A stretch of DNA of 64,000 nucleotides from Prorocentrum cordatum (taxonomy: Eukaryota), in the NCBI GenBank assembly GCA_963575745.1, contig CAUYUJ010000270.1:1-64000 (forward strand), given 5' to 3'. Below the pieces are notes generated by a model. It did not search any database. It was not told where the DNA came from and saw nothing but the letters and a program-made list of their open reading frames with translations. Shown here piece by piece: positions 2,755 to 63,039 of the stretch. The number at the start of each line of letters is the position of its first letter. Position 1 is the stretch's first letter. A program made the translations under genes and the position numbers.

Positions 2755-3030
2755 AAGCAATGCGAGCCAATGGCATTCAAAACGGTGCAACGCAATGCAA
2801 CGCAGTGCAACGCAAACCAATACAAGGCAATACAAGGCAAGGCAAGACAAAGCAGCGCAAACCAATGCAAGCAATTTACTGCGATGCAAAGCAATGGAAA
2901 TCAATGCACAGCTAAGCACAGCCAAGCACGACAATGCAAAGCAGTGCAGCGAAGCACGGAAGAGCGATGCAGAGCAATGCGGAGCAACGCAAAGCAGCGC
3001 GAAGCTTGCGATGCGAACAGGGGGCAGTGC
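2755..3030. repeat. Degenerate pentamer repeat (GCAAT/GCAAC/GCAAA)
   Basis: Repeated gcaa-N units. Confidence 0.8.
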
Positions 3031-12625: not shown

Positions 12626-13119
12626 CACTCCGCGGTGGTACGGGGTCGATGCGTCGGGCACGCCCGCGCGGGCCTTCAAGGTTGCACGGTCGCTAATGGG
12701 CTTGTCTCGCGGCCCAAGTAGCACGATAGACAACCCACGATGCGACATACATAGGAAAGTGAGGTCGACAACCATCGAGGACTTCCGAAAGCGGAAATCA
12801 TCGAAGATCGAACGGTTCACACGTTGTCAGAAATCAAGGCTCGGGCGTGAGTTTCCCAAAGGATGAGTGGGAGGGGAGAAGGCGGAAGGGAGGGAGTTAG
12901 GGACGGACTTGGTATGTAGAGGGCTGGGAAGGAGTGGATGGACGTTCTTGGGCCTCTCAGGGGCCTCTTTGATAAGCATACCGGGCCCTCTTAGGGCCAT
13001 CCTTGAGACATGGGGCGTGATACAGGGGGCTCCTTGGGGGGCTTCATGGTCCCCCCCGGGGGTCGCCTTGGGGCCTCCGAAATTCCCTTGGGGCCCTGTC
13101 GGGGGGCTCCCGAACACCC

Positions 13120-13700
13120 ATGAAACCCTTTTGGGGCCATGCTGGCGCCCTCCAGGGGCCCCCGCGGTAGAGCAGCTAAAACGGCCGTTTCAGATGCTCT
13201 ACCGCGGAGGGCTCTTGGGGCTCTCTCGGGCCCCCTCAAGGCTTGTGTTGGGGTCTCCGGGACTCTCCTGGAGCGCTCTAGTGGCGGCTCTTGGGGCCCC
13301 CTGGAACCCTTTTGGGGCCATCCTGGCGCCGTCCAAGGGCCCCCGCGGTAGATCATCTGGAACGGCAGTTTCAGATGCTCTACCGCGGGGGGGGAGGGGG
13401 CAGCATGGGCCCCCCATGGATTGTTTTGGAGTCTCCTTGACCTTTTTCGGAATCCCCTTGAAGCCCTCAGGGGCCGCCTTGGAGCTTTCTTGAGCAATGT
13501 GACCAACACTTGGAACGTCTGCCTGGGCTTATCGAGTTCATTGAATGCGATAAGACCCGAGGTTTCAACACCGCAGAGACTTTGCTGGAATATTATTGTG
13601 AAGTCTTCGGGGCCCTCTTTGAATTCAAAACTCCCGCTTGGGTCACAAGACATCCCAAGAAAGCTCCGAAGGGACCCGAAGGTCCAAGTCCTTCCCCCTA
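13120..13700. repeat. Second, diverged copy of the 4383-5300 hairpin-array repeat family
   Basis: Same hairpin at about 13162 and 13343 (~180-bp spacing) and a similar downstream segment (ttcttgagcaa...). Confidence 0.75.
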
Positions 13701-18585: not shown

Positions 18586-21559
18586 CAGCGTTGGTCCGAA
18601 GAGACAAACAACAGACAAGAGAGAGAACAAAAGAGGAGGATGCGGGCGCCCTCGAGCCGAAAGGGCAACGGAAAGAAGATGGCGAGAATGACGCTGATAC
18701 CAATACGAACCCTGGCATTAGGAAACGAACGCAATTAGATCAGGAATGCTTATGGGAGCTCAGCTGACCCCTCGTTTATCGAAATGGGGCGAGGCGGGCT
18801 TGGGCGCCCTGGGGACAGCCAGCGGGGCGCGACCTCGGCTTCACGACACTCCCTGGTACCTGCGAGGCTGCGCGGTTGCGTGCCCCCCAACCCTCAACTC
18901 CCGAGCACCAAACAAAAAGCACCGCGAACGCAACATCGAAGAGACTCGGACGCCTGAGGGGTCCTGGAGTGGCTAGACGCTCAGCATCCAAAGTACATCG
19001 ATGCGGAGACGCCAGCAGCAGCCCGAAACCACAGCTCTTCGTTGGGCTTACGCGTTCGCACTGGGATGATGCTGGGGGTGGGGGTGGGGTAAAAACAATA
19101 GCAGCAGCAACCACCGCAGAAGCAGCCAGGGGACTCGGGACGCCTGGACCAGGAAGGGTCGGACCAAGAGAAACCACGCGGGAAGGAGACGCGAGGGGGC
19201 AAGAGCGCAGAGAGCCTGCTGAGCTCGAGTAGGAGAGAGAAGAGGAGGAACAGCAGCAAGGGCAATGGCAGCGCACGCAACACTACATAGCGAGCCCGGC
19301 GACCCTCGCCACATGAAGGCTCCGCTGCACTTTTCTCGGGGGCCAGAGGCCCGCCCGTCGACGAGGGTCCCCCTCCAAGGAGGGGCAAGGGAGAGTGCCG
19401 CCGCGGGCGAGCAAGGGCTGACGACATCCTGAATTCGTCCATGTATCGCCCCCCCCCGCCTCATTCCTCGACTTTTCCCGCCCTCCTCGGTTCATGGCTG
19501 CTGAAAAAAATCGTTCGGAGCGGGGTGTCCTGTCAAATTCGCGCCGCGCTCTGGTTGTTTGGGTTTCTCGTGTTCTTGATAAGTCATGGGTTTTCGAAAC
19601 ATCCCTCGGAATGACCCCCATGGGCAGCTACCTCGGAGTGCCGTGTATCCGATTTGGGGGGCAAACGCAAGTTTTTGTTTTCCGCATCTCGGTCTGAATG
19701 CACTGTGGGCCCTTGATGCGTGCTTTGGGCGTTGTCGCATCATGCGGCCTGCCCTGGAGGGGGCCCCCCGTCCTCTGCGCCTCCGCTGCCTCCTTGCCCC
19801 TCCCTCTTCCAGTCGTTTTCGCCCACCCCTTTCAGCACCCCCCAACGCCATTCCTGCTCCCCCATGGACCCCCGTGCCCCGACCCCTTGGACCGAACGCC
19901 TGCCTGGCCCCCCGCCCGCCCCACGCAGCGAGAACATTGAGGAGAGGAGGAGCTAGAAGGGTTGCAGGGCGAATAGAACGAGCAATGGACGAAAACAACG
20001 AGGAGGAGGAGGAGGATCATATTTTCCATTGAGGAACCCAGCGCTGCGCATGCTCTCTGACAAGCACAACGCCGCCCATGACCTTCCCCGCGCATGAGCA
20101 GAAACTCTCTGTTCACTTTCGCCTTTGGGACGGCCATGCGGCGGTGCCGACGGGCGCGGGCGAGCCATCGCAGAGGAACGCCGAATCAAACTCCAGCGCG
20201 CTCGCTGGGCCCCGCTCCCCGTCGGTGTTCCAGCCGGAGCGCGCCCGCCGCGGCAGGGCGCAAGGTTCTGCCGCGCGAGCGGGGTGATGCGCCAAAACCT
20301 TGACATCGGCGCGCCAGCGCCAGCTCCCCGCGCAAACGCCAGCCGAGACCCCGCAGCACGACGACAACCCACCCCCTACAGCAGGGCCATAACCCTGCCG
20401 ACACAGAACGAACGGCGCCTCTATCCCCCACGCGCGAACGCTTGCAAGCGCGCGCAAGCTCGATACTGATCAGGGCGCTGACCCAGCCCATGCGCAAGTT
20501 GATGAAACAGTGCCCGCATCAAGGTGTCGGCCTAGGGCTGACACCTGGGCGCCGCCCCTGCTCCTACGGCAAGGCAACGATTCAACAACGCATGCCAAAG
20601 CGGCGACCCCGACCTTGCAACCCGGCGCTTGCAGTCCCCGCAACGGGGTGTCAGCCCAAACGCTGCGCCGAGGCGCCGAAACAATCCGCACGGCGGCGCG
20701 CGACGCCCATCCCCAATCACCAGAGCGCCACCCGAAGCACTGCAGAAAAACACCAGCCTGGCCCGCGCAGCAAAAAGCCAACGCAATCAAATTCGCACGC
20801 CGCGTGGACCTCGCCCACAAGCACATGCGAACAAGCTCGCGGAACGGGCCACTTGCGCGTGATAGCATGCGTAATGTGAGAAGTGAGCGGCGCGTACTCT
20901 GTGAAGTTAAATGCACTCTAGCATGTACTAGCCAAACCACCGCACGGCAATGCGCGCCTGCACAACGAAGTAAGCAAACAAAAACTGAAAAACAACGCAA
21001 TTTCGTTTGGAATGGATTTCGGCGCGCTCCCCTTTTCGTCTCCAAAGGAAAGGCCACTATGAAAACGGCAGTTGTGCAGTGGGAGGAGGAGGAAAAGTAG
21101 GCAGGAGAGGTCCGCCTCACCTCCCTCCTCTTCCTCCTCCCCCTTCGTCGTCCGCCTCCTCCTGCTCTTCCTGCTGATGCTCTTCCTCTTCCTCGTTCAA
21201 CAAGCTGCGGCTCTCTATCCGCTTCGCACCGAACGTTTTCGAAGCATGATTTTTTGCCCCCGGGTTTCTTTCAATCTCTTTCGTCAAGAGCTCTGGGTTA
21301 GTTGGATTTGGAGACAACGGAATTCGCCACCCAGCCCGACCGCTGGAATGGCCGAGACAACAAACCCCGCGCGCAGCGTTCCACCAATGAGGGGGGAGCA
21401 AACGCGTAAGGTTTCGGTGGGGATCGCTCGAAGCAAAATATATGTTTCCATACGCGGTCCTGCAATCCCGACCCTTTCCGCGGGACCAGCTTGTCACTCT
21501 GAGTCGTCTTGTTGACGGTCCCGGGGCCGACCTGATACCTTTTGCCCCACGCCAGCAGG

Positions 21560-23851
21560 TCTGGGGCTGATGCCCTCCGAGCACCCACTGGCAGTCGGGC
21601 GCCAGCCCGGCCACGCGCAGCGGCTCCAGCGAGAGGCCCTGCGCCCGCGCGGCCTCGAGGGGCACCAGCGCGCGCGCCTCCTCGGCCCTCTCGCGCGAGC
21701 AAACGGGCCCGTGGACGCCGAGGCCGTTGCGGAGACGGGAGGCATCGAAGCCCTGGAGCTCGAGCTCCGCGACCCGCACGAGCGAGCCGGCCTGCAGGCG
21801 CTGGACCCTGCGCCTGTGGACCTCGGAGTGCCGGACGTGCCGATCGACCTCGTTCGTGAGGATGCTCCTGCGCAGAAGGCGTCTGTACGCCACAGGCTCT
21901 GGCCAGGGCCACGCTGGGCCCTTGCATGGTGCATGCCCCTCCTGGCCGAGCCCGGAGGGTCTGTCTATACACAATCGTGGGGCCCAGGATGGCCCTCGCC
22001 AGGCATGGCGGCGGTGTATAGATGCCGTCTGCGGAGCTCCAGCTCTTGCTGCACAAAGAACAGACGAAATCGCGGGCGCGCACCTGAATGAATTCGTCGC
22101 CCGGCTCGGACAGCGCCACTATGCGACGGATCGTCTCCAATGGCAGCCGCGGCAGCACGCCCGCGGGGCCAGGCCGACTGCGGACCCGCATATATCCCAG
22201 CACCATTACCACCGCATACCTCCGCTCGAAGTAAGGGTTGATGTGATCGCAGCCCGCGCATACCCGCGGCAGCGCCTTCGACCTCTCCGCTTGCGATTGA
22301 GAGAACGCCTCCCTGGGCTTCGGCAGCCCGCAACGCACGCAGAGCAGCGTCTCCGCGGTGCAGACCCGGCATCGGCGCTGCCCACGTGGGCGCATCATCT
22401 GGCTCTTAGCGAACCCGCTCAGCGGCAGCTCCGACCCGCAGCCGCTGCACGGCTGCGCCACGCAATCGTTGCACCGCCGCACCAAGTGGGCGGCAGCCGT
22501 GTCCTCCGCAACGCTGACCGTCGCGGACTTGCGGAACTGGTACCGACCGAACATGTTGAGCGGCAGCGTGCGCCCGCAGGCGCCGCAGAGGTACGTCCTC
22601 GTGCCACCGAAGTCCCGGCTGCCCGCCGCCCCAAGCCGCGCCCCGCAGCCCCGCACCGTGTCGTCGTCGGCCCCGTCGCGCCCTGAAATGGCAGGGAGAG
22701 CTCTATGAACTGCGCCTGTTCCCCTCCCCCCCCGGCCCTGCCGGCTGCAGCTAGACGCGCGATGTGCGGTTAAATTTGCGCCCTCGAGCTCCGGGAAAAT
22801 GAGAGGAGTTCTGGAGGGACGGAGGGAGAGGGCAGGGGGGAGGAGCGCACGCTTGTCCTCAAGCCCTCGAATCGCGCACCTCCCCTACCCCTCAAGAAAG
22901 TACGGTGCACAGAATTTCCTGGTGCCGGCCTAGGCTGCCGTCGCCGCCCTGAGGCAACGGCGCCGCGCCAGCGGAGGTGACGGGCGGCGGCGCGAACCCC
23001 TGGGCCTGGCCGCCAACTGCGGCGCGGGCACTGGCTCTGGCTGGCCCCGCGGGGGCAGGGGGCTCCACGACAGAGGGCGCCGTCGTCCCTGTGGACTGGT
23101 CCAAGAAGCCGTACAGGTGCACCAGGGGGCAGCTGCAGAAGCCAGCCCGCCCTGCTTGGGCGCACAGCGTCTTGGAGCAGCCCCCGTCCTGCATCAGGCA
23201 CCACCGCAGCGAGCCCGCCGCGGCCTCCTCCAGCAGCTCCTCCGGCCGCGCGATGCCGCAATTGCCCAGGCGCAGGTACACCGGCGCGTGGCGCCGCTGC
23301 CGCCGGACCCACATCGGGTACTGGGGCAGGCCCACGAAGCTGAGCAACAGACCAATCACCGCCTCCCGCTCGCGGAAGGCGTTGTTGGTCAGGTGCACCT
23401 CGCGCAACTGCCCCGGGTACGACCTCGCGAAACCAGCCAGCGCAACCAGCGCCGCATCCGTGAGCAGGTTGAAGTGTGCCTTCAGCACCAGTGGACAATC
23501 CAGACCCAGCTTGGACCAGGCCCTCAGGATGGAGCGAAACCCTGCGTCCGATACGGCGTTGTGCGAGAGGTCAACGTCCGCCTGGCGGATCGAATAGCCG
23601 CTGGCTATGTGGGCGCGAACGCGCCGGGAACACGCTGCGGACCACTGGCGCGCCGCCGCGTCGTCGAGGCCACAGCCAGCCAGCCGTGCCACGAGGTGCC
23701 CGGTCGCCGCATGGATCGTGGTACGGCGCTCTGCCTCATCCAAGGCTGCACGCGGATCTGCCTCCCGATCCTCGGCGTCGCGGTCGCGGTCGCCGTGACG
23801 GCAGTCGGCGCCGCCTGCTGGGGTCACGGCCTCGGCCCCAGCGGCCGCCAT
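21560..23851 (-). CDS. LRR (RNI-like) + three Stc1-like Cys4 zinc fingers + matrin-like C2H2 protein; at least 3 exons (23851-22948, 22682-22040, 21867 onward); 3' end uncertain
   Basis: LRR-like: VDLSHNAVSDAG, LKAHFNLLTD, EVHLTNNAF, LRLGNCGI. Three CxxC..P...F...Q..CxxC repeats. FVCSLCSKSW|SILTNEVDRHVRHSEVH. Introns are GC..AG and GA..AG; the first donor is one of several possible sites. Confidence 0.75.
21868..22039 (-). mobile_element. Introner-like intron (GA..AG, 172 bp) with terminal inverted repeats
   Basis: After GAG, the 5' sequence CTCCGCAGACGGCATCTATACACC matches the revcomp 3' end CTGCGCAGAAGGCGTCTGTACGCC. GGAGC is duplicated at the junctions. Confidence 0.75.
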
Positions 23852-27712: not shown

Positions 27713-28001
27713 CTCAAGTTCTAGCTAGGCTTGATAGGCGAACTCATGTAATATCAGGTATTCAACGATTCGGGGCCCTCAAATGCTTCCTGGGTTTTTG
27801 GGGGGTCTGAACGTGGTCTGTTCTGCAAGAGTAGACTGTGGGCCAAACTTGGACAAAAGAAGGAATTGTGGGATTTCCATAGTTTTCCAGATCATCGGCG
27901 CTGTTCGGCGCTGTTTTTCCCCATATCCTAAGATGGGGTTCTTGTTAATACTTGGACGCCTCCTACTGCCTCTCCCTCCTCCTCTTTCTTCCTCCCCTCC
28001 T

Positions 28002-28340
28002 CATACTCAGACTTACTCATACTCAGACTTACTCATACTCAGACCTACTCATACTCAGACTTACTCACACTCAGACATACTCATGCACAGACTTACTCAT
28101 ACACAGACTTACTCACACCCAGACGTACTCATACACAGACTTACTCATACCAGACTTACTCATACACAGTATTACTCATACTCAGACTTACTCATACCCA
28201 GACGTACACATACACAGACTTTCTCATACACAGACCTACTCATACCCAGACTTACTCATACACAGACTTACTCATACACATACTTACTCATACTCAGGCA
28301 TACTCATACTCAGACCTACTCATACTCAGACTTACTCAAC
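28002..28340. repeat. 16-bp minisatellite (ACTCATACTCAGACTT)n
   Basis: About 20 degenerate units. Related tracts at 46396-46570 and 47560-47630. Confidence 0.9.
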
Positions 28341-28356
28341 ACACATCAGATTTGGA

Positions 28357-29461
28357 GGATGTCTCAAGCGGGGCGCTGGTTTCAGCACCCCTAAGGGGAG
28401 CCGCCAGGGGTGGTTGCACGGGCTCGTTCGCGGCCATTTTGTGGGGATGTCTCAGGCGGTTTGCTTGTTTCTGGGCTCAACATCCTTCGCTTGGAGAGCA
28501 GATTGTGAGGATGTCTCAGGCGGGGCGCTGGTTTCAGCACCCCTAAGGGGAGCCGCCAGGGGTGGTTGCACGGGCTCGTTCGCGGCCATTTTGTGGGGAT
28601 GTCTCAGGCGGTTTGCTTGTTTCTGGGCCCAACATCCTTCGCTTGGAGAGCAGATTGTGAGGATGTCTCAAGCGGGGCGCTGGTTTCAGCACCCCTAAGG
28701 GGAGCCGCCAGGGGTGGTTGCACGGGCTCGTTCGCGGCCATTTTGTGGGGATGTCTCAGGCGGTTTGCTTGTTTCTGGGCTCAACATCCTTCGCTTGGAG
28801 AGCAGATTGTGAGGATGTCTCAGGCGGGGCGCTGGTTTCAGCACCCCTAAGGGGAGCCGCCAGGGGTGGTTGCACGGGCTCGTTCGCGGCCATTTTGTGG
28901 GGATGTCTCAGGCGGTTTGCTTGTTTCTGGGCCCAACATCCTTCGCTTGGAGAGCAGATTGTGAGGATGTCTCAGGCGGGGCGCTGGTTTCAGCACCCCT
29001 AAGGGGAGCCGCCAGGGGTGGTTGCACGGGCTCGTTCGCGGCCATTTTGTGGGGATGTCTCAGGCGGTTTGCTTGTTTCTGGGCTCAACATCCTTCGCTT
29101 GGAGAGCAGATTGTGAGGATGTCTCAGGCGGGGCGCTGGTTTCAGCACCCCTAAGGGGAGCCGCCAGGGGTGGTTGCACGGGCTCGTTCGCGGCCATTTT
29201 GTGGGGATGTCTCAGGCGGTTTGCTTGTTTCTGGGCTCAACATCCTTCGCTTGGAGAGCAGATTGTGAGGATGTCTCAGGCGGGGCGCTGGTTTCAGCAC
29301 CCCTAAGGGGAGCCGCCAGGGGTGGTTGCACGGGCTCGTTCGCGGCCATTTTGTGGGGATGTCTCAGGCGGTTTGCTTGTTTCTGGGCTCAACATCCTTC
29401 GCTTGGAGAGCAGATTGTGAGGATGTCTCAGGCGGGGCGCTGGTTTCAGCACCCCTAAGGG
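28357..29461. repeat. 152-bp tandem repeat, ~7.3 nearly identical copies
   Basis: Unit starts at 28357, 28509, 28661, 28813, 28965, 29117, 29269 and 29421; only rare substitutions. Confidence 0.95.
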
Positions 29462-29789: not shown

Positions 29790-30780
29790 TCTTCCAGACC
29801 CCCATTGGGGTTCTGGAGGCCTCCTGGAGGCCTGGAGAGCCGTCGGAAGGGTGTCTCGGGTTGCGCGGGAGCGTGTTGGGCTGTTCTTTACGTTTTGGGG
29901 GCTCCTTGGAGTCGTTTTGGTCTGTCCTTGGGCGTCTTGGGGCCCCCCCGGGAAGCCGGGAGGCGCGGTACCGGCCAGATGTCAGGGGATGTCTGGGATC
30001 TCCAAGTAGGAGTCCATTTTGAGAAAAGGAATTCTGGGAATTCCCGTTTCTTTCAGAATCCTCGATCTTCGAGGGTTGGAAGCGGGAAAACTTGAGAAAG
30101 CGAAAAACATTAGAAAAACCATTGGAAATCAACGATTGTACCCTCTTTGGGCTCTCTCGGGACGGCTCTCGCAGCTCTATTGGGCCGTTCTTGGAGCTTC
30201 GTTGGGGTCTTTTTGGAGCCTCTCAAGGATCGGGGGTGTGTTGGGGGCCTATGGGGGTCCCAGAGCCTCTCGGAGGTCTCTGAAAGCCTCCTGCTCCCGC
30301 TCTTGGGCCCATCTTGGGCCTGTTCTGGGGTGGTCTGGGGCTGTCCTGGGCGGCTCTTCGGCAATCTTGGAGCTTTCTTGGCCCGTCTTGGGGCCGTCAT
30401 GAGGGTCCCTTGGGTGTTGGGGCGGTCTTGGGAGCCTCTTCGGCGATCTTGGACCGTTGGAAACCCGAAAACGCGAGAAGCCAAAACCATTGAAAAAATG
30501 ACAATCGACGATGTTGTCCTCTTCGGGCCGTCCCGGGACGCCTCTCGGACCTCTCTTGGGGTCTCTTGGAGGCCACCTGGGAGCCTCGAAAGCTGTCGGA
30601 AGGCTGACTTGGGCTGCTTGGGAGCGTCTTGGGCCATCCTTTCGCATTCTGGGGGATCCTGGGAGGCGTCTTGGGCCCTCCTGGAGCGTTGTGGAGGCTC
30701 CCCGGAAAGGCTGGGGGAGCGGTACCGGGAGCGTCCCCGAGATGTCACGGGGAGGTTTGGGACCAGGGGCTGGGGGGGGG
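29790..30780. repeat. Dispersed TCTTGG/GGGCC-rich repeat family
   Basis: Opposite-strand relatives (CCAAGA-rich) at about 38400-38590 and 45390-46180. Confidence 0.55.
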
Positions 30781-31925: not shown

Positions 31926-33559
31926 GACCCATGCGGCCCCGCGCCGAGCTCGAACCAAGGCCTGGTGCGCAGGGGGGGGCAGCCGGAGAGCGCGCGCCGC
32001 ACTGCGGCCACTGCAGCCACACGGCGCCGCTGGCCCACGGGAGTGGGAGCAAGTCGGGCCGCCTGCGGCGCCTCCCACGGGACGGTTGCACGGGCAGCTG
32101 CCGCCCAAAGACCTGGAGGCTGACGCGCCCTGGCATTGCGCTCTGCATGCGAATCGAGGCGCAGGGGCGGCTTTGTACACAACGGCGGGAAGACCAGGAA
32201 CATCCCGATAGCGTCACCGAGTCAGCCCTGCGGGGCTTCCAGCCCAAGAGGTCTCCAAGATCGCCCCGAGTAGCCTCCGAGGCCCCCAAGATGGATGCAA
32301 TATGCTTCCAAGACGGCCCCAAGAGGGCCCCAACAAGCTCGCCACTTCAAGACCGCTGAAGCAGTACGATGCAGGGAGCGGGACAGCGGAAAATAATCCC
32401 ACCAGCCCTTTTAAGGCGCGAGTGGTTTAGAGCGCTTCCTCTTCCAACCTCATTCTTCCCCTTCGGGTTGATCACTGTTCCCTATAAATGGACACAAATC
32501 CCCTACCTGGCCGGCAGCCAACCCGGAACAACGAGGACCCCATGAGGGCCCCCCACCCACCATCCATGTCGGAAAAATAATGCAAATTATACTTCGGGGC
32601 AAAGTCTGGAGTCATGGTCGTGAGGCCTGCGAGCTCTTTGTTTTGTTTTTGGACAGGGACGGCGAGGGTATCAGCATATCGCCTGCAGTGTGCAGGGCTA
32701 CCATCTCTGACAGAAAAACAATACAAAATACATCTCGCGGCGAAATCTGGATCGCGCGCGGCCACCGCGCAATCACTGTCAAGTGGTGGCGTATGGCCTG
32801 ATGTGCGCAGGCCCACCATACGCATTGATGGGCATGGGTTTTCGCCATGGATGGTGAGGGCCGACATGTTTCCCGATGTGTGCTGTCACGTGCGCAGGCG
32901 CACCTGACACATTCAGCACGTGCCCCGAACGAGGCGCACCTGGCACGGCTCGAGTATGCGGCGCACCTTGCGCACGCGGAGGCACGTGGCGCATCTGGCG
33001 AACCAGGCGTGCCTGGCACGCTCGGGCCCAAGGGGTGCCTGGCGCGCGTTGCGCGCCTGGCACGCGTGGCGCACCTCGCACCAGCGTCGCGCGCATGGGA
33101 TCGGTTATGGTTCCCGGTGGCTGCCCATCCAAAGACGACCGCTGAACATGCTGAGGCTCGGGTATTACGTATGTGGTGGGAGGGCGGGTGGGAGTGAACG
33201 AGACGGATTGCTATCTAGGAGGGTGTCTTGACCCCTCCCCCTAGCCCCTCCCCTGGACCTGGACGGGGCGCCCCGCGACCCACTAGAGCGCCCGAGAAGG
33301 CCTCGGCGAGAAGGCGCGCGCCACTGATGTCACCCATGTTTTTTTTGTAAAGCCAGCCTGGCCGCCCCAATTGTTTGTTCTTGCACGGGTGTGCTCGCGC
33401 ACGCCCATTCGCCATCTCGCTGCGAGACGGCGCTCGAGAGAAGGACAGGCCACTAGTCCAGCGGCCTCGCGAGCGGTCCTGGCGGCCCCCGCCAAGGGTG
33501 GCAGGCGCCCCATCCAGGGGCAGCAACTGCTCCCTGCACACGGGAGGAGGAAGAGGAAG

Positions 33560-36500
33560 GAGAGAATAACACAGCCGCCTGTTTACTCCAGGCAGAAACC
33601 ACCGCACGGCGGCGACGACTCGTAACTCTGAGGCGAGCTTCAAAGCGTTGCTGGCAAGTGCCTGGGATGCCCTGACGGCGACAGTTATGAAGAGCAACCA
33701 AGGCATCAACACAAGCGGCATAGCACATTGGAAGACATTGATGATGGTGAAAGCATGAGGAAGGGAAGGGGCCAGGGCGAACCCTCAGGAAACCAGGGCG
33801 AGGAGATAAATAGAGGTCCAAGCCAATATCTGAACAGAAGCCAACCGAGGACAACATACAGAGTGTTCAACGCTATCAAGATCACCCTCACCAAGTGCTG
33901 GGCATCCCCGGGCACAACCTGCAGGGCTATATTTATATCGCTTGGTGGCGCAGAGACCGCGGCGCAGGATGCGCATGGCTCCCACGAGCATATACGGCTG
34001 AGTTTTCAGGTGCACGAAATACGAGTTAATCCAGAACCGATCCATGCTGCGCGGTGAAATCTCTGGGAACCATGCTGCAACTCGACGAAAGAGCGTCCGA
34101 CGAGGGCCCTCGTTGGAAGGGGGGCCCTCGACCATCAGCTCGTAAAGGCGAGCTTGAAGACGCGGCAGATCTACGCTCGCACGTGATGGGATAGCGTAAT
34201 ACCATTCATACAGACTGTGCATAGAACAGAGGAAACCCGGCTTCCAGTAGCCTCCTCTCATCCTGACAAAGACATGCTCTGGATGATCCTCAAGAGACCG
34301 AAGATGCTCAAAAACAGCGCCTATCCCATCATTCTTAATCAAATATCGGATACACGTCGCTTTGGCCAGGCACAGCAGATCTTGAAACCCGACGGGCAGG
34401 TGAAGCCTGCGCAACTGCGCGCAGAAAGAGTCAGAGAAAGACTTGCGAGGCCCTGCCGCGTCACTCTGAACACCGCTGCTGCTCTCGTAAGCCCCAGGCC
34501 AAGCTGACGAATGATGCCTGCACGGGGCCTGAATTTCCGGAGGGCCTCCGACCACGCGTGACGGTGAGCCTGCGGGCCTATGAAGGCCCCGAGACACTTC
34601 TCGCTGTCGACAACCTGAAGCAACCTGTAGTCACCCTGCAGAGCAGCAGTCGAACCGCGCATCAGGCCTAGCCCGAGGTTGCCTCTGATGAGCACCTGGC
34701 ATTCCTTAAAGTTCAAGGCGAGTCCAGCAATCGGTTCGAGAGGCTGAAGGGTTCGAAGAACAGGGCCCAGGGACGAGGAAACACGCAGAAGCCCAAAGCA
34801 AAAATCATCAGCATACGCAAGCGTACGATCGATATGACTGCTGCCTTTCGCCTTGACCCGCCTGAGTAGCGGACCCACCGCCTGCGCGAAAGGGGGCGTG
34901 CTGGACGGACACCCTTGCTTGACCCCAGAGCCCATGATCATCTTCCCGAACCGCCTTCCTCCCAGCACCACAGTGGCAGTCTGCTCCTGATAGAGCAGCA
35001 TGAAGAAAGAGACGACGGCAGAGCTGATCCCCATCTCGCTCAGCACGCGCAACAGCCAAGGAATCGCCAGCGACGGAAACGCTGCGCAGAAATCGGTGAG
35101 CAATAGGCAAGCTTGCTCATTCGCCAAGACATGTTGTTCTAGAGACCAAGCCTCTGCGTCGACGATGTAAGCGATCATGCCCCGATGCTTTAAACGCTTC
35201 TGGTCAGGGGAAACAATCTTCGAAACATTTTCCCCCAATGGAATAGATGCGGCCCCAGCGAGAATCTTGATGTCCGTGTTTGACATACCTAGAGTACGTG
35301 TTTCTTTGGGGCCTCTGGAGACCTCAGGACCACTGTCACGAACATCAGAACCTTTAGGGGGGACAACCATGAGGCTGTGACGCATGTCAGGCGGCAGAGA
35401 CTCGATATTCACATTAAAGAGACAGAGATAAATCTCATAAAGAGCGCGCGCGGCAGACGGCGCCGACCAAGCTCCATACGGGGCGCCGTCTGGTCCGGGC
35501 ATGCCAAAAAAACTGCGCATAAGTAAGCTGCCAAACTTCAGAGAGCAGCTCTGGGACCTTCTGGATGCGCGCAGACACCTCAGGCCACAGAGACCTGTCT
35601 AGAGCCTTCGGAGAGAAAACCTCGGACCAGTAATCCTGGGGAACCTGAGCAGACTCTTCCAGGGAGGGGCATGGACTACCATCAGCATCGCACACACGTC
35701 ATATGCGTACGACTCCGAAAGCGCCTCCAAAGCTCCGGATACCTCTAAACCCTGGCCTGGTTGTTTTTCTTCGTCTTGGGGTCCGCCTCAGAGTTTTCAA
35801 TTTCCATGTTCTCCTGGTCACGCAGCTGCATCTGGACGCACCGAGTGAGAGCACACAGGCCAGCGACGTTCGTGCACCTAAGGTTCGTCATGTCGAAATT
35901 CAGGCCAAGGGTAGGATAAGCCTTAAGCGCATCCACGATCATCCGATCCCTCCCAAAACTCCACCCTCTCAGCGCATGCATGGCCCAGTGATGCTTCAGC
36001 TCTAACGTGGTAGCTGGGATCGTATTGGTATACTCCCGAACGTGCTTCATGGTGACGAACATGCATGACTTAATCGTACTAAGACGCCCCAAGACAGATA
36101 AATGCAGGCAATCGTGATCTAGTTCGGCAATGAGCTGCCCTAGGTTGATCAGGATGCTTACATATATGCTTGGGGCTCGTGGGGAACTCAGCAGACGGGC
36201 AGAAGGGGGGGAACAGAGCAAATATCGGGATGTGGTCGCTCGGAGACTTAGGCATGGGCTTGCCAATCACCCCGCTGCGGATATCATAATCTCTCAGAAT
36301 GGCCTGCGGCAGGGGCGCATGCATTCTGTCCAACCGAGAAGTGCGGACGACGATGCCGCCACGAAGCTCCCCCCCGCGCGACGCATTCCTGAAACGCAAG
36401 CAACCGTTGGAAACAATATGTGATAGAAGCGCGAATGAGGGCGGCCACCACATAACCATCCACTGCCGTCGCCCTTCATCCCCCCCCTCCTCCTCTAAAG

Positions 36501-37062
36501 CAAAGTTGAAGTAACTTATGAGAATACGGTGTGAATTGTGCGCGGCGTCGTAAACAGAGCGGGCCGCCCTCAACACTGCCGGGTAAACCGCGAGCGTGTC
36601 ACTCGTGTTGGGTAGGTGGACATTGAAAATCGTGAGGTTACCTGCAGGGCCCGGACAAGTAGTCTGAAGAACCCGCCCCGTAACCAACCCATGATGATGA
36701 ACAGTGGCGAACTGCTTCCTGACCTGAGGGGCCAAGACAGTGACCACCCCGCCTTCGCCTTGAGAATCCTCAGACATAGAGAAAACGATGTCGCGCCCAG
36801 GACGGGGCCCATCCAGCTCCCTGGGGAGCTCTCCAATATCACCAACGTGACCGTGAGCTTCCTGCCCGCAGACAATCTGAAACTTCCGAGCGAGGGATGA
36901 GAATGACTGATACCTAGCACCAGCGCGCCAGGAGGCCTGGCGGACACCGCAAAAAAAAACCGCGAGTGTTCCAGCTGCAGATTGACAAGGGCTCAGGAGG
37001 GGTGAAGGGTAGATAATTGGAGGGAGGAGGAGAGGAACTAGCATCACCAATGTCGTTCCCAA
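33560..37062 (-). pseudogene. LINE ORF2: APE endonuclease + reverse transcriptase + C-terminal Cys/His motif, multiple frameshifts
   Basis: APE: SWNTRG, CGQEAHG, NVHLP, SRLDRM, SDHIPI. RT: PGPDG, SNTDIKIL, TDFCAAFPSL, GVKQGCPSS, AYADDF, LALNFKEC. C-terminus: CARGC..DSVEHSVCCP. Confidence 0.9.
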
Positions 37063-37140
37063 GACAGCTAGAGCGCGATGGGGGCAAACAGGAGTCGCCC
37101 CGTGGCGGCCGAAGGCCGCTCAAGCGGAAGACAGCCTGCT

Positions 37141-38264
37141 TCAGCGCCTAGAGGACTGCCGGAGCTGGATGGCGGCGGCCTCGCGGAAGGCCTCAGCGTG
37201 CCGGTGGATCCCGAACTCCCTGGGGGCATCGAGCTCGAGCTCCATCTCGATCTTGTGCCCGTCGTCCGCCGTGCGCAGCTGCGCGAGCGAAACTGGGTCG
37301 TCCTTCCTCCTTAAGGTGTAGGTGCAGCCACCGAGCCCGTTGCTGAACACGTCATATCCACGGGGCTTGATCAAATCCGCCATCGCGGCCCTGACCTTGC
37401 CCATAGAAGAAATAATTGGCGATGTGTGGTGCCCGCATCACGGCGAACACGAAGTGCCAGTGGCGAGCTTGAAAGTGGATCAGGATACTGAATCGTAATC
37501 GATGAATGGCGCTCCGTAGGTGCGAACCTCTGGCGAACAGCTTCGCCAACTGCACGTAAGGTAGTGGCAAGCACCCGCCGTGGAAATCCAAGGATGAGCA
37601 GCTTCGTGGCGTTGTCCTGGCTCTTCTCCGTGGCCGCGGTGCGCTCGCTGATGCTCGAGCGAACATCCCAGGGCGGCCGAGAAAGCTTGTCTAGCTTCTC
37701 CTCAATGTATTTAGTCTTCTCCTGAACTGATGAAGGGATCGACGACGTCGCGTCCGTCATGTCAATCGAGGTCGGCGTCGGCGTGCTCAGGCGCTCGCAA
37801 GCTGCAGCCTCGAAGCCGTCCATCCGTTCCTTCAGGGCCGTGAACGCGGCCGCGTGCTCTCCCTCAATGTGCACCATGCGCGAGTGAATGTCGTTGCCCA
37901 TCGTGTGAATCGAGGATGTGAGCTGGTCGCATCGGAGCTGCGTCAAGCCCATCTGGTTCTTAATCTTGGCGAGATCGTTCACTGAAACCGATACCTGACG
38001 AGAAAGACCCTGCAGCGAAGACATAATCATATCAAAGTTGGAATCCTGGCTTGTCTGACTAGGACGGCACCTCTCACGCTCAGAACGACTCTTCGATCGG
38101 GATGAGCAGAAGGAAAAACTGCGGCCATCGGGCGATCGCGGCACTCGCGGGCTGCGACGGCGCTCTCCATGCTCTCGCATCTGGGCGGCTGTGTACTGGG
38201 AGGTAGGGAAAAGGACGGATATGTGCAGAAAGTCACCTCGAGCCTCCCCGTCGGCAGCGACCAC
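37141..38264 (-). pseudogene. LINE ORF1 (RS-rich, coiled coil, RRM-like KLLILGFP), frameshifted near the C-terminus
   Basis: ORFs 37371-38264 and 37141-37404 lie directly upstream of ORF2. Confidence 0.7.
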
Positions 38265-38293
38265 GTTTCAAACCCCAGGGCACAGGTTTGAGT

Positions 38294-38315
38294 CTTGAGC
38301 CAAAATGGTTACGGA
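38294..38315 (-). other. Dinoflagellate spliced-leader (DinoSL) sequence
   Basis: Minus strand TCCGTAACCATTTTGGCTCAAG versus DCCGTAGCCATTTTGGCTCAAG, one mismatch. Confidence 0.92.
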
Positions 38316-41300
38316 TTGATTTCGCCAATGTTTTGAAGACATGTTGGCCTCCTGGGGGGGGCTCTGATGAACTACCACCCCTTCTCTGATCAAACTCCTC
38401 CAAGATGGCCCCAAGATGGCATCCGAGGCTCCCAAGAGTGCCTCAAGAGGGTCCGAAGAAGCGCCACGGAGGCCCCAAGAGGCCCCCAACAGGTTCCCAA
38501 GGGACCCTCAACAGGCCCCAAGGGGTTCCCTCGAAACACCTAAGACGCTCCAAGTGCCTCCAAGGACCGCCAAGAGGCCCCCAAGACGTTGGGGTACGAC
38601 AGCTTCCCCAACCGTTTTTGTTCCACTGCATGCCCCTCCACATCCCTGATCAGGGCAACTCTCCTGGGCATCGCTTCTGGATGGAATGGTGGCGTTACGC
38701 GGAACGTCTATATAATATTCACACTGTTGACGACGAAGTCGTGGACTGAACTGTGGACACAGAGAGGGCGGAGCGTACCACTGGCAGGAGTAGGTGGATA
38801 CTCGCTCTGTTATGAAGTAGAGCCGGCCAGGTAGGGAGAAGGGGATGGAGAGGGGAGGAGAGAACAAAGGATGATGAGGGGAAGGGGGGAAGGGAACGGA
38901 ACGCTCAAGCTCTTTCTCCTCTGATCGAGTTGATCGATGCAGGACGAGGAGGAGGAGGGAGAGGCGGGTGTAAATGCGGAGGTGGTGCAGGGGGATGGGG
39001 AGGAGAAGGCAACATTGGGGAGATGGACGATGTGAGATCCTCAACGGGGGGGGGCGATCATGAAAGCACGTCCAAAGAGGAGGGGCAAGGACAGAGGGGA
39101 CGGTGGAAGAGGAAGAGGGAGGAAGGCACGAATGAGGAGGGAGGCTGGTAAAGAGGGAGGCCAGCGGCCATCCATGCCGCCCGCGCGGCAAGCAACGACA
39201 CCCCCGCGAGCGCGCCCGCCAACACCATGGCCCGCAATCTTCCCGAGACCGGCACCATTTGCGAACAGAAGCCATCATGCCAAGCACATCTCGGGCCGGA
39301 TGGACACTATCTGCCGCTGCTGCGGCCAGACAGAAGCCATCAAAACAAAAGTAGCTCGAGCCGAATGGCAGGATGGCCGCAATATGTCGCCGCTGCTGCT
39401 GCTCCTCCTGCTTCTCCTCCTCCTCCTCATACTCCTCCTCCACCTCCTCCTACACCTCCTCTTCCTGTTCCTCCTCCTCCTCCTCTCCTCCTCGTGTTCC
39501 TCCTCCTCCTCCTCCTTCAATCCCTGACTCCCGCCCTGCCCCTCCTCATCCTCGAGGCTCCCATTTAGGCTCCGTGCCCCCGTGGGGGCGGGGGGGGCGA
39601 TTCCATCTGGCCCAGTCGCCAGCTGCCCACGGCGCGGGCGCTGGTGCATCTGCCGCGATACTAGGCGAGCGGGCCAGATTTCGCCCCCCCGCACAAGTGG
39701 GCTCGCTGTGGGGGGAGCGTCGGCGAGGCAGGTCATCCGCCTCGACACGGCCAAGAGACTCCTTCGCCAGCATCACGGCGAGTATCACCATAGCGTCGTC
39801 ATGGCGCAACCCAGCGGCGCAGGTAGCGGCGAACCTGCAGGGCCTCCACGGGCGAAGCCGCAGGCGAGTGGCCCTGGCAGTGCAAGGCCAGCAAAACTTG
39901 TGGATTCAAGAACAACTTTGCCACGAAGATGACGTGCTGGAAGTGCGGGCGCGACAAGGACGGACGACCAGCGCAGATCTAATACCTCGTCGTCGAGCTG
40001 TCAAATCTCTGTGACGTCTCCAGTATGACGGCTCCAATGAGGGCATGCAGCTCGCCTCCGCGGCCTTGGCCGAGGCTGAACAGGCCGAGGGCGACACCAT
40101 GGCACCAGAACATGTCTTGCGGAGCCCGCTGGGCAAACTAAAAACAAAAAGAGTCGGAGAGATCGAAACAATCTGGACGACAGCATCGTCCACAAGCCCC
40201 GGGCCGCACGTGCCCGGCAGACCTTCCACGCAAAGCGGGAAACGCCGCAAGCTAAACAGGGGCGGTGGGATACCCCCCCCTGGAGGTAACCCTGGAGGGT
40301 GGTCCCCGTGGTCCTCGGGGCGGAAAGCCCGTTGAGTGAGAGCCAAGGCCTCCTGTGCACGATGGAACCTGTCAATCAGCGGTGCTGACTGTTCCTGTAT
40401 CTGTTGAATGGATGTCACCAGCTGATTGGCGCGCTGGCTGAGCGCTTGAATGCTGTCAGAACGATGCTCCGCGGTCAAATGGTTGTTCAAGATCGATGTT
40501 TTCTTTGTTTTGGTTGCCGTTTCTCTCTGTTTTGTGGAATTTTGAGCCGCCGTTGTCCTTCCATTCTTTTAGTTTTCGATGCGTTTTCGATACGTTTCCA
40601 GCTGCCCCACAAACGCCGATCATAGTAGAAACGAATCGTTGTTTATGTAAAAAACTGTGTGCTACCGTTTTGCTTCCGTGTTGGTCGACCGCAACCAGTG
40701 AAGATGAACACGGAAGAAAAACACGCCCCAAGCGATGTTTAAGACAAAGCCCCCTGGTGGATGGAATGCAGGCCCAAAGTCCCCAGTGGGGAGGGACGTC
40801 CAAGGCCGTTTAGCAAAGGCCGGTTATCGGGTCCGGGTGTTTTTTTCCTTCCTGGTCGTGAAACTAAACAAATGAGGCCATAACCTCGAGATGCTGCACA
40901 GTGTGCATGTGTGGCATGCACGCGAGGCACCTAAGGAGGCCGGGGGGGGGGGGGGCCTGGTCGGCCTGGTGGCATGAAGCGCTGCGGTGGGGGGTTGGGT
41001 GTGCGGCAGCAGTGGCCAGCCTGGCGGGTTGGGGCGGCGGGGCCAGCTCCCGGTGGGGTCCATTCCTCGACCCCTCGCCTACCATGCGCAGGTCCTCTTC
41101 CAGATTGGGTTGGGAGGTAACACTGTCATCGGTGCGTCCATCAGGGGTGCGACCAATCTCAGTGGGGGGGCAATGCAGAACGACCAGATGGTTCAAGAAC
41201 GTGCTTACGTTGATGCTGACACATCCCACTAGCACATGGTCCATGAATTCCTAACAAAAGCGTGTTGCTGCAATCAGGCGAACAGCCCTACACAACTCAA

Positions 41301-45646: not shown

Positions 45647-46395
45647 CCATGAGAGTCCGAGATGCCTCCAAGTCCGCCCAAGAGGCCGCCAAGACGGCCC
45701 AAGATGGCTCCAAGACGCCCCCACGATGCTCCAAGACAGCCCAAGAGGCCTCCAAGAGGTATAATGTTCCTGAGGTGTTGATGGATCTCATCATTTGATT
45801 ATTTTCGGCCTTCCGACGGCCCGAAACGGCCCAAGAGCCTCCGAAAAACGCCCCAAGACCCCCCAAGAGGCCTCCAAGATGGTCCTAGAACGGCCCAAGA
45901 GGTCCCCAAGACGGCCCCAAGAGGGCCCCAAGACGGCCCAAGGGCCTCCACGACTCCCAAGGTGGCCCCCAAGACGGCACTGGAGCACTCCAAAAGGGCC
46001 GCAAGTCGGCCCAGAGAGGCCCCCAAGACGGCTTCCGACGGCGTCAGACTGGCCAGGAACGCCTAAAGACGGGCAAAGAGGCCCCCGAGAAGCCCCCAAA
46101 GGCCACCAAGATGCCCAAGGAAACCCTCGCAGAGGCACCTTCCAGGAGGCCCCAAGAGTGTCCCCATAGGCTCCCAAGATGCCCCCTCCTCCTCCTCCTC
46201 TTCCCCCTCCTCCTCCTCCTCTTCCTGCTCCTGATCTTCCCCGCCATCCTCCCCCAAGTGTTTCCCGAAAAGTTTCCACAACGGCTGGGGAACACACGGT
46301 CAGATAGCCTGGCAGAGCTCTTGCCACAACGCTCGGCCACATGGGCGATTCCAAAAGGCAGGTGGGCGGCAGTGATTCGCCGTAGGCGTCTTCGA

Positions 46396-60100: not shown

Positions 60101-63039
60101 CACACGTTTCGTGGCCCCATAGGGAGCTCCACCGAAGGCCCCAGTGGCGGCGCTCACATGCGCATGCGTCCCGCACACCCATTTCGGCACATCCCTGACA
60201 GGTTTCGTGGCCCCATCATCCACCGGAGGCCCCAGTGGCGGCGCTCACATGCGTCACCCACACCCACCCAATTCGGCACACCCCTCACACGTTTCGTGGC
60301 CCCATAGGGAGCTCCACCGAAGGCTCCAGCGGCCGCGCTCACATGCGTACCCGCCACCCATCCCAGCACGCCCCTCACAACAACAGGTTTCGTGGCCCCA
60401 TAGGGAGCTCCACCGAAGGCCCCAGTGGCACCGCCTGCATGCGTCACCACCCGCACCCAATTCGGCACACCCCTCACACGTTTCGTGGCCCCATAGGGAG
60501 CTCCACCGAAGGCCCCAGTGGCGGCGCTCACATGCGCATGCGTCCCGCACACCCATTTGGGCACATCCCTGACAGGTTTCGTGGCCCCATCCACCGGAGG
60601 CCCCAGTGGCGGCGCTCACATGCGTCACCCACACCCACCCAATTCGGCACACCCCTCACACGTTTCGTGGCCCCATAGGGAGCTCCACCGAAGGCTCCAG
60701 CGGCCGCGCTCACATGCGTACCCGCCACCCATCCCAGCACGCCCCTCACAACAACAGGTTTCGTGGCCCCATAGGGAGCTCCACCGAAGGCCCCAGTGGC
60801 ACCGCCTGCATGCGTCACCACCCGCACCCAATTCGGCACACCCCTCACACGTTTCGTGGCCCCATAGAGAGCTGCACCGAAGGCCCCAGTGGCGGCGCTC
60901 ACATGCGTCCCCGCCACACATCCCAGTACACCCCTCACGCGCTTCGTGGCCCCATAGGGAGCTCCACCGAAGGCCCCAGTAGCGGCGCTTACATGCGTCT
61001 CCGCCACCCATCCCGGCCCCCCCCCCCCGCAGCAGCATCATGTTTCGGGGACCCATAGGGAGCTCCACTGGAGGCCCCAGTGGCGGCCTGCACATGCGTT
61101 TCCGCCACCCATGTCGGCACGCCCCGCGCGTGTTTCATGTCCCCATAGGGAGCTTCGCCGAATGCCCCAGTGGCACCCATCTCGGCACACCCCTCACACG
61201 TTCCGTAGTCCTATGGGGAGTTCCATTGAAGATGAAACCCGCAGCTGCGGTACTGACAACTGCATATGGTTGGGTTCTTCGCCAGGCTAATTTTTTTTTG
61301 AGCTGCCTCCGAAGCCCCGCTGCCTTTTGGGAGGCCTGCCCCTTCTCACTCTTCCCCTCGGCGCGCCGACGACTTTCTACAAGAGCAAAACAGCTGGAGG
61401 AAAATCGACCGTCGGAGGTCCGCACGGTTTTCGTGGGTTGGCGCCGGACTCCCCCGCCCTGGCGCGGGAAACACACCAGGGGCGGCGCTGGAGGCGCCGC
61501 CAGGGGGCGTCCGAAAGTGTATGCTTATGTCTGTTGTTTGTTCCCAACTATCCGGTGCTGTTGGGTCTTCGCCTTGGATCCGCACCGCCGCGCCACGCCT
61601 CCGTCTTCTCCTCATCCAAATCTCTCTCCTCCTCCTCCGCTTATTCCGCCTCTCCGCATCTCTCTGTTAATTCTGCACGTTCCTCACACGCTTCGTGCCC
61701 CCATAGAGAGCTCCACCGACGGCCCCGGCGGGTGCGCTCGAATGGCGTCCCGCGCCCATTTCGGCACACCCCTCACGCGGATCGCGGCCCCATGGGACGC
61801 TCCACCTATAGCTCCAGTGGGTGCGTTCGCGTGGAATCCCCGCACCTGCTTCGGTACACCCCTCACGCGGACCGTGTGGCCCCAGGGAACTCCGCCTGCG
61901 GTCTCAGTGGGCTCCACCGCGTGCGGGCCCGCGCACATTTCGGCACACCCCTCAAGACGCGGACCATTGCCCCATGGTGAACTCCAATTCTGGCACACAC
62001 ACACACACTCTACTCACGCGGATAGAAGCGCCAAAAGGAGCTCACACTTCTGTCTCTTCGGGCGCCACCGTATGTGGCGGGCCCAAGCCCACTTCGGCAC
62101 ACCCCTCACAGGAGCGCGCCCATTCCGGTACACCCCTCACGCGGATCGTGGCCCTGCAGGGAGCTTAACCTGTGGCCCCAGTGTGTGCGACCGCATGCGG
62201 GGCAGCACCATGTCGGCACACGCGGATCGTAGCCCCAGATGGAGCTCCACCTGCGGCCTCACAACCGCATACAGGCCGGGCTCACTTCGGCGCACCTCCG
62301 ATGCGGACCGAGGCCTCACAAGGAGCCCCTCGCATACTAGCACGGGCTCAGTGGGCCTGGCCGCATGCGGGGCGTCGCCTGTTTTGCCCATTCCCCTCTC
62401 GCGGCGCGCAGTCCGCGGGGAGAGGGCCAGATCCTGCGCTACACGCAGCTGCAGAGAATTGGGCATCTCGCCAAACTAATTCTGACACACCTGGAATGAA
62501 TACGGGAAAGAATTGTACGATGCCCCAAAGCAAGTGTTGTCCAAAACCGACAGCGCCCGCTGTTGGGCAGCGGCCCGTGGTCCCAAATGGACAACTGACA
62601 ACGTCCGCGAACCGATCGCACCGATCATTTTCCCGTGGAGCCTTTGCCGTGCAGTCGTCGGAGGCGGTGATCACGTGCCGACCTCGTGGGGAGAATGCGG
62701 CGGAGCACACACCCTCGGCATGCCCCTCCAGCACGCGTAGGCAGTCCCCGCTGGGGGCGGACCAGAGCGTCGCCGAGCCGTCCGAGCAGGCCGTCAGCAC
62801 TTGCCGCCCATCGGGCGAGAAGGCCGCAGAGTTGACCACGTCGGCCCCGCCCCTGCCCAGGGTGCAGCGGCACTCCCCCGTGGCAGCGGACCAGATCTTC
62901 GCCGTTCCGTCGTCGGAGGCGGTGAGCACCTCCTCGCCATCGGGCGAGAACACGGCAGAGCAGACGCAGTCTGCGTGGCCGCTCAGCGTCCGCGAGCACT
63001 CCCCCGTGGCAGCACACCAGAGCTTTGCTGTGCCGTCGT
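57152..63039 (-). CDS. WD40-repeat protein, 3' exons (63039-62642, 58502-58365, 57896-57835, 57290-57152); 5' exons not resolved
   Basis: Repeated GH..V.SA.FSPDG..VLTAS.D.TAK.W motifs across the exons. In-frame joins: CTAK|VWSS, SM|ESWEC, VFS|PDGQ. Stop TAA at 57154-57152. Confidence 0.85.
57296..57834. mobile_element. 539-bp TIR element in the WD40 coding sequence with a 5-bp TSD and no canonical splice sites
   Basis: TIRs cagaggaacagacgacggcacagacat / revcomp tagaagatcagaagacggcataaatat (20/27). TSD gagag / gagaa. Confidence 0.7.
57897..58364 (-). mobile_element. Introner-like intron (GA..AG, 468 bp) with terminal inverted repeats in the WD40 gene
   Basis: After GAGC, the 5' sequence CTCGGGCGACGCCAAGT matches the revcomp 3' end CTCGGGAGAGGCTAAGT (14/17). 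GGAG is duplicated at the junctions. Confidence 0.65.
58791..61299. mobile_element. DINE-1/Helentron-like element with a long ~90-bp tandem array, inside a WD40 intron
   Basis: Same termini as 23981-24879 (CCCAACCAT...ATGGTTGGG, T-runs). About 25 units between 58920 and 61240, with a ~371-bp higher-order duplication around 60140-60900. Confidence 0.65.
61541..62370. repeat. Third, older copy of the same element
   Basis: cccaactatcc..gttgggtc start followed by diverged ttcggcacacccctcac units. Confidence 0.55.

Follow-up and report, generated by a model that had tools for sequence, protein, structure and literature searches.

A decayed LINE of Prorocentrum cordatum with the dinoflagellate spliced leader at its 5' boundary

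The subject of this study is a stretch of 64,000 nucleotides (nt) from the dinoflagellate Prorocentrum cordatum (contig CAUYUJ010000270.1, positions 1 to 64,000; hereafter the window), the minus strand of which carries a long interspersed element (LINE) fronted by the dinoflagellate spliced leader (DinoSL). This copy is an old, inactive, structurally full-length LINE of the apurinic/apyrimidinic endonuclease (APE) type. The spliced leader (SL) sits at its exact 5' boundary and inside a target-site duplication (TSD), a tail of A residues closes its 3' end, and its second open reading frame (ORF2) can be mapped over its full length. The most probable explanation, to which we assign a probability of approximately 0.75, is that the copy arose when a LINE RNA with a trans-spliced leader at its 5' end was copied by target-primed reverse transcription.

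Leader, tail and target-site duplication

Direct reading of the sequence recovered all of the parts that the original prediction had listed, and in the order claimed. On the minus strand, one TSD copy is followed by the DinoSL, a 113-nt 5' untranslated region (5'UTR), ORF1, an ORF2 with APE, reverse transcriptase (RT) and CCHC-type regions, eight A residues, and the second TSD copy (Table 1). The description of the LINE as complete holds for its structure, which is full-length, but not for its coding capacity, both ORF1 and ORF2 being broken.

Table 1. Features of the LINE copy, listed from its 5' to its 3' side (positions are those of the window; iE, independent E-value)
Feature	Position	Strand	Remarks
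5' TSD copy, AAAACATTGGCGAAATCA	38317..38334	-	15 of 18 positions shared with the 3' copy; top-scoring among 146,689 18-mer pairs from the flanks
Single extra A between the 5' TSD copy and the SL	38316	-	
DinoSL, DNA-encoded, TCCGTAACCATTTTGGCTCAAG	38294..38315	-	21/22; sole site in the window; mismatch G7>A
5'UTR, 113 nt	38181..38293	-	begins with ACTCAAA; in-frame TGA at 38270-38268
ORF1, broken	37141..38180	-	ATG at 38180, stop at 37141; P. cordatum homologues
ORF2, APE domain	36136..36990	-	profile positions 18-280, iE 3.7e-27
ORF2, reverse transcriptase	34462..35704	-	RVT_1 E 7.8e-7; profile positions 433-852, iE 3e-89
ORF2, C-terminal region with CCHC-type motif	33582..34468	-	profile positions 880-1178
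3'UTR, approximately 235 nt	33347..33581	-	from where the match to the ORF2 profile stops to the A run
A8 tail	33339..33346	-	the final four A's are possibly TSD sequence
3' TSD copy, AAAACATGGGTGACATCA	33325..33342	-	repeats the upstream 18-mer

The 22-nt leader with a single mismatch, as originally predicted, was confirmed: TCCGTAACCATTTTGGCTCAAG is identical at 21 of 22 positions to the DinoSL consensus DCCGTAGCCATTTTGGCTCAAG as quoted in PMC7245778. It is the only DinoSL-like site with three or fewer mismatches on either strand of the window, and none of 100 dinucleotide-preserving shuffles of the window contained any match. The SL starts 135 nt upstream of the ATG of ORF1 on the same strand, with the 113-nt 5'UTR between them, so that the feature by which DinoSL-tagged retrocopies are recognized, a DNA-encoded DinoSL directly upstream of a coding sequence on the same strand, is present. 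The bases after the SL are ACTCAAACC, and thus the 22-nt exon alone is present; the intron beginning with GT that follows the exon in the SL RNA gene sequence quoted in PMC12584245 (ACCGTAGCCATTTTGGCTCAAG-GTACACATTGGG) is absent there, nor was GTACACATTGGG found after the tail. A scan of positions 32000-40000 against Rfam yielded no RNA gene.

The one mismatch of the SL, G to A at position 38309 (SL position 7 on the minus strand), converts GTAG to GTAA, whereby the internal AG of the leader is lost. Relict leaders are reportedly re-spliced at this internal AG, and the relicts start at CCATTTTGGCTCAAG. The change may be plain decay; if other copies share it, re-splicing at the terminal AG of the leader would be favoured. 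Directly behind the SL, the sequence ACTCAAA (38293-38287, minus strand) matches the SL end GCTCAAG at five of seven positions, both differences being G to A. It could be the worn, truncated relict of an earlier retrotransposition cycle or a chance match, and is too weak to be used, with 11 lengths tried and a background in the window of 1.5% per position for matches of 5/7 or better. The 7-nt sequence ACATTGG, which occurs in both the upstream TSD copy and the SL RNA intron cited above, was also judged to be a chance match.

Regarding the TSD, the original prediction had paired 38334-38316 with 33342-33324 at 15 of 19 positions, and a recount gave the same figure. The best ungapped form is 15 of 18 (AAAACATTGGCGAAATCA and AAAACATGGGTGACATCA), which stops 1 nt short of the SL and begins within the A run; the sequence directly after the A8 tail on the minus strand is CATGGGTGACATCA. 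In a junction statistic for duplications of 8-25 nt, with a permitted slack of 0-3 nt next to the SL and 0-11 nt next to the tail, the score of the real pair was reached in 10 of 20,000 trials when the real 3' side was kept and 5' sides were taken at random from the window, and in 8 of 20,000 when the real 5' side was kept and the 3' sides were random. Leaving out the four A's common to tail and TSD, which reduces the TSD to 11/14, gave 62 of 20,000. When the 400-nt stretch preceding the SL was compared with the one of equal length that follows the start of the tail (146,689 pairs of 18-mers), the junction pair was the single best pair with 15 matches, and the next unrelated pair, a GC-rich low-complexity one, had 14. 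The 14-nt core of the TSD occurs seven times in the window with three or fewer mismatches, approximately the number expected by chance, and is not a local repeat unit. The similarity of the TSD copies, which the original prediction had named as a point to be checked against chance, is thus better than chance and located exactly at the junctions.

The TSD encloses both the SL and the element. An A tail and a TSD, the marks left when a processed RNA integrates, are both present. This TSD exceeds chance, coincides with the junctions and surrounds the SL, so that the leader lies within the inserted unit, which supports a template RNA that bore it. The start of the TSD with AAAA would be expected if a T-rich nicked strand primed on the A tail. 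The amounts of decay are mutually coherent, with differences at 3 of 18 positions between the TSD copies (about 17-21%) and at 1 of 22 in the SL.

Coding regions, relatives and genomic surroundings

A profile of 34 full-length relatives with APE and RT (1,182 positions) matched ORF2 collinearly over positions 18-1178. The match is broken into six pieces whose frames alternate (36936-36136, 36131-35685, 35704-35510, 35535-34462, 34468-33659 and 33722-33582), which amounts to at least five frameshifts, and three stops lie within the aligned segments. The APE part of the profile aligned with 36936-36136 and includes the motifs GQEAHG (36867-36850) and SDHIPIF (36240-36220), while CSWNTRG (36979-36959), the motif at the start of the APE, is in yet another frame. 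In the RT part, GVKQGCP (34926-34906) and AYADDF (34818-34801), a YADD-type active site, were recognized, and a C-x2-C-x13-H-x3-C motif after the RT (33916-33848) was read by eye, without a model score. With Pfam, the largest open frame gave RVT_1 alone, and no APE hit was obtained on the decayed copy.

An exhaustive HMMER search revealed 3,014 RT relatives at E <= 0.001. Of 11 relatives scanned with Pfam, 10 had PF03372 (Exo_endo_phos), which covers the region of the APE part of the profile, followed by PF00078 (RVT_1), and the other (P0002) had RVT_1 only. The best relative of the RT with a solved structure was human LINE-1 ORF2p (E 1.8e-13), and R2 proteins ranked below it. As judged from sequence comparisons, the nearest protein relatives of the element are those in P. 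cordatum. The closest RT found, 60% identical to that of the LINE, is a EukProt entry labelled as the green alga Pyramimonas sp. CCMP1952 (P0001), which is probably a dinoflagellate carry-over in that transcriptome; its origin from a transcriptome may point to transcription of a related element. A search of 159 proteins for SL-derived peptides returned only VAILAQ in P0137, which lies within the C-terminal region of ORF2 and was judged to be a chance match.

ORF1 is homologous to two P. cordatum gene models, P0002 (E 3e-30) and P0159 (51% identity), in comparison with which it has suffered one frameshift near 37400 and a deletion of 32 codons. For the ORF1 homologue of P. cordatum, the AlphaFold model predicts one long helix at the N-terminus (residues 2-86), with block means of the predicted local distance difference test (pLDDT) of 71-82, and the remainder has a mean pLDDT of 51. 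The P0159 gene model consists of approximately 110 unrelated N-terminal residues fused to an intact LINE ORF1, and the identical sequence bears two source names in the cluster table, 'Prorocentrum cordatum' and 'Polarella glacialis'.

No second copy of the family was found in the window by blastn or with the ORF2 profile, which identified the element as the sole member of its superfamily there. In a public DNA run (X1), a 391-nt contig represents the locus itself with 0 differences. The word depth of X1 in the interior of the element was 4.6-42, and its contigs differed from the element by 0 to about 14% (e.g. 45 differences in 317 nt); on these grounds, the LINE family is multicopy and diverged. 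Three forms of joints (4 contigs) in X1 bridge flank-like sequence across 5,071-5,131 nt, all without the SL, and they provide weak support for an insertion, the flanks being of low complexity and the sides 21-29 letters long. The joint 38315>38473 in X1 was not counted as a second copy: it has a 21-letter side and probably reflects an SL beside such a repeat elsewhere. In an RT alignment scan, no close copies of the family were detected in metagenome contigs, in which five loci were 23-28% identical and had no SL, and no relative was found in viral and prokaryote genome contigs. The sequence TTTTGGCTGAAG in one metagenome locus (L005) was rejected as an SL because it is ordinary coding-like sequence.

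The flanks of the element (32800-33411 and 38308-38715) consist of GC-rich low-complexity repeats with a period of approximately 11 and GAGGCCCCCAA-like units, which recur in the window at 32242-32335, 45660-45976, 30387-30438 and 13066-13326. They are of extremely high copy number, with a word depth of ~2,500-6,800 in X1 in the bins 32800-33411 and 38308-38511. Elsewhere in the window, a 152-bp tandem repeat (28347-29461; 7.3 copies, 99% identity) lies beside a 16-bp array of 21 copies (28000-28338). Among 67 long open frames, the host ORFs that Pfam recognized encode a Stc1-domain protein (21301-22884) and a WD40 protein (62351-63358), both on the minus strand, as is the LINE.

Origin of the leader

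According to the original prediction, the retrotransposon's own RNA was SL-trans-spliced and copied to the cap. The latter part is supported for this copy, in which the SL would have been at the 5' tip of the template and copied fully; as for the former part, we infer that the SL was acquired by trans-splicing, which may also be the regular route by which the family makes its RNA. The LINE pre-mRNA would have received the leader by trans-splicing at a site 113 nt ahead of the ORF1 ATG, in the same manner as other dinoflagellate nuclear mRNAs, and the element's own enzyme would have copied the SL-bearing RNA in cis. In this process, the endonuclease would nick a T-rich target, consistent with the AAAA at which the TSD begins, the A tail of the element RNA would prime cDNA synthesis at the nicked strand, and the RT would reach the first nucleotide of an RNA that starts with the 22-nt SL exon only. 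After its insertion, the copy would have decayed through frameshifts, stops, one SL mismatch and the divergence of the TSD. DinoSL-tagged retrogenes make an SL-fronted LINE an expected corollary, and the element behaves like a DinoSL retrogene, the parent gene of which is the retrotransposon itself.

Several points weigh against this origin. Only one copy was examined, i.e. a single full-length member of the family (n=1), and the trans-splicing of the family's RNA was deduced from DNA. The TSD is imperfect, with three mismatches in 18, and four of its matches are A's common to the tail, while the high-copy low-complexity flanks make an empty-site comparison unreliable. Furthermore, a preprint on Symbiodinium (10.1101/783902) reports no functional overlap between DinoSL-relict genes and RT genes and calls the two processes independent.

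The main rival is a hard-coded leader, in which the SL was acquired once and has since been inherited as part of the 5'UTR, transcription starts from or near SL nucleotide 1 under an internal or SL-borne promoter, and no trans-splicing takes place in that generation. We consider this unlikely. The geometry of the locus, with the SL at the 5' end of the RNA, is equally compatible with it, and the DinoSL relict has been proposed to carry TTTT/TTTG core-promoter motifs that enable the expression of retrogenes (Song et al. 2017, PMC5585692). Hard-coded SLs also appear to occur in other selfish elements, namely, giant-virus bins in which an exact SL directly adjoins a promoter-like motif. However, this explanation needs the added assumption of exact initiation at SL nucleotide 1, with the promoter activity being hypothetical, and the 1/22 mismatch of the SL is accounted for by the decay predicted from the TSD divergence, so that an SL that was still canonical when the copy was inserted is the simpler solution.

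With respect to these viral leaders, an exact 21-nt DinoSL was present at 119 loci in IMG/VR (L006-L124, e.g. L016, L025, L056 and L059) in 135 distinct contexts, and none of the 119 loci had a LINE ORF2 match. As many as 116 of the 135 contexts were in loci with a GC content rounding to 0.1-0.2, and giant-virus bins were in the majority. An A precedes the SL in most of the contexts listed, and in one bin the SL stands right after conserved AT-rich motifs such as TTTTTATTTTTAAATATAAATTTTA or TTTTTATTATTATTTTACTAAACCA. Judging from these motifs, the giant-virus SL looks like a promoter-plus-leader cassette hard-coded before viral genes. The single RVT_1 hit in the giant-virus bin G001, one piece of which (L126) has a GC content of 18.6%, was rejected as a relative of the LINE because it lies in DNA of this composition, scored 3 bits on the ORF2 profile and had no SL nearby.

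A further alternative, already raised in the original prediction, is an SL-targeted or SL-adjacent insertion in the manner of NeSL or SLACS, in which the LINE landed just downstream of a pre-existing SL belonging to an SL RNA gene or a retrogene relict. Non-LTR (long terminal repeat) elements specific for SL genes exist in other SL-using lineages: SLACS, CZAR and CRE in trypanosomatids and NeSL-1 in nematodes insert in SL RNA genes, with the SL as target DNA, and possess a restriction-like endonuclease after the RT. The element resembles them in being a non-LTR element physically joined to an SL sequence, and its repetitive flanks would also suit such a target. Nevertheless, an SL owned by the target is disfavoured by the position of the SL inside the TSD, not in target DNA outside it, together with the presence of the exon only. 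The LINE is not inserted in an SL RNA gene: no SL RNA intron follows the SL or the tail, the SL is the only one in 64 kb, with no tandem array, and the region yielded no RNA gene. Moreover, the endonuclease is of the APE type and upstream of the RT, not a downstream restriction-like enzyme, and, if SLs occur once per 128 kb of strand, the odds that one falls by chance in the correct orientation no more than 135 nt from ORF1 are ~1 in 1,000. The element is thus outside the SL-gene-specific clades SLACS/CZAR/NeSL, none of the three defining features tested being found in it, and this alternative is highly improbable.

We assign a similarly slight probability to a template-switch chimera, in which the RT jumped from an SL-less LINE RNA to SL RNA or another mRNA in the manner of U6-L1 chimeras; LINE RTs are known to switch templates in mammals and SL RNA is abundant, but a jump onto SL RNA should bring the intron, whereas the 22-nt exon alone is present, a jump onto another mRNA exactly at the border between SL and 5'UTR is unlikely, and the LINE part is not 5'-truncated, with contigs of other copies reaching at least 38211, past the ORF1 ATG.

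A more far-reaching extension of the trans-splicing origin is possible, although we hold it to be rather doubtful. In this extension, the family is promoterless and depends on read-through transcription of the unidirectional dinoflagellate gene arrays, trans-splicing at the terminal AG of the element's own SL relict releases and caps its RNA and renews its exact 5' end, and the APE-type LINE is the engine of DinoSL retrogenes. The leader would then be both the 5' terminus and the re-entry signal of the element, the G7>A change would remove a competing internal AG, and the same APE-LINE machinery would drive thousands of DinoSL-tagged retrogenes.

Comparison with known systems and biological meaning

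DinoSL relicts before retro-copied genes have been well described (PMC6050394, PMC5585692 and PMC12014239). As in those retrogenes, for which a trans-spliced mRNA is described as being reverse-transcribed and integrated, a DNA-encoded DinoSL directly precedes a retro-copied transcript in the present case. In contrast to them, the source mRNA is the retrotransposon's own bicistronic RNA, and a complete 22-nt SL at the boundary is combined with an A tail and a TSD, i.e. the full hallmarks of LINE integration.

The element shares with human LINE-1 (8c8j, 8sxt and 8uw3) a bicistronic organization, an ORF2 with APE, RT and CCHC, an A tail, a variable TSD from an A-rich site, and a long N-terminal helix of ORF1, which is predicted here in the homologue. 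This likeness is one of architecture. The 5' end of L1 is set by an internal promoter in its 5'UTR, whereas that of the present element would be set by a trans-spliced leader of the host. A parallel in terms of the host is found in L1Tc/ingi of trypanosomatids, which are LINEs in hosts with all mRNAs SL-trans-spliced; however, their internal promoter Pr77 is described as giving abundant unspliced transcripts, by which the SL is avoided, in contrast to the SL-bearing LINE RNA proposed here (PMC1874656 and PMC8190864). Transcripts and endogenous copies of dinoflagellate RNA viruses (dinoRNAV; PMC10235124) are likewise parasite-derived sequences that carry the host leader 5'-terminally, and the promoter-plus-DinoSL cassettes of giant viruses also put this leader in front of parasite genes. 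These differ from the LINE in being viral, and the SL of giant viruses appears to be hard-coded behind a viral promoter motif, without a flanking TSD.

A description of a LINE with DinoSL as its 5' terminus was not found in searches of the main text of freely accessible papers. The finding combines LINE integration with SL-tagged retroposition, both of which are known.

Dinoflagellate genomes are rich in SL-tagged retro-copied genes, and the responsible RT has been called unknown (PMC6050394 and PMC5585692). The review PMC6050394 favours LTR elements as the driver of retroposition, and 'RNA-dependent DNA replication' was listed among the Gene Ontology terms enriched in DinoSL-tagged retrogenes, which was read as a sign of active machinery by an enzyme again called unknown (Song et al. 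2017, PMC5585692). The locus in the present study represents a molecular fossil, in which the enzyme of an APE-type LINE copied an SL-capped, A-tailed RNA to its first nucleotide and integrated it with a TSD. As a decayed LINE with an SL, an A tail and a TSD, it makes APE-type LINEs a tangible candidate for the machinery that drives retroposition in dinoflagellates. If the leader was gained by trans-splicing, as we consider most probable, LINE mRNA in dinoflagellates would enter the trans-splicing pathway. Should the SL be the regular 5' end of the family, it would give LINEs a novel means of fixing their 5' terminus, one that dispenses with an internal promoter.

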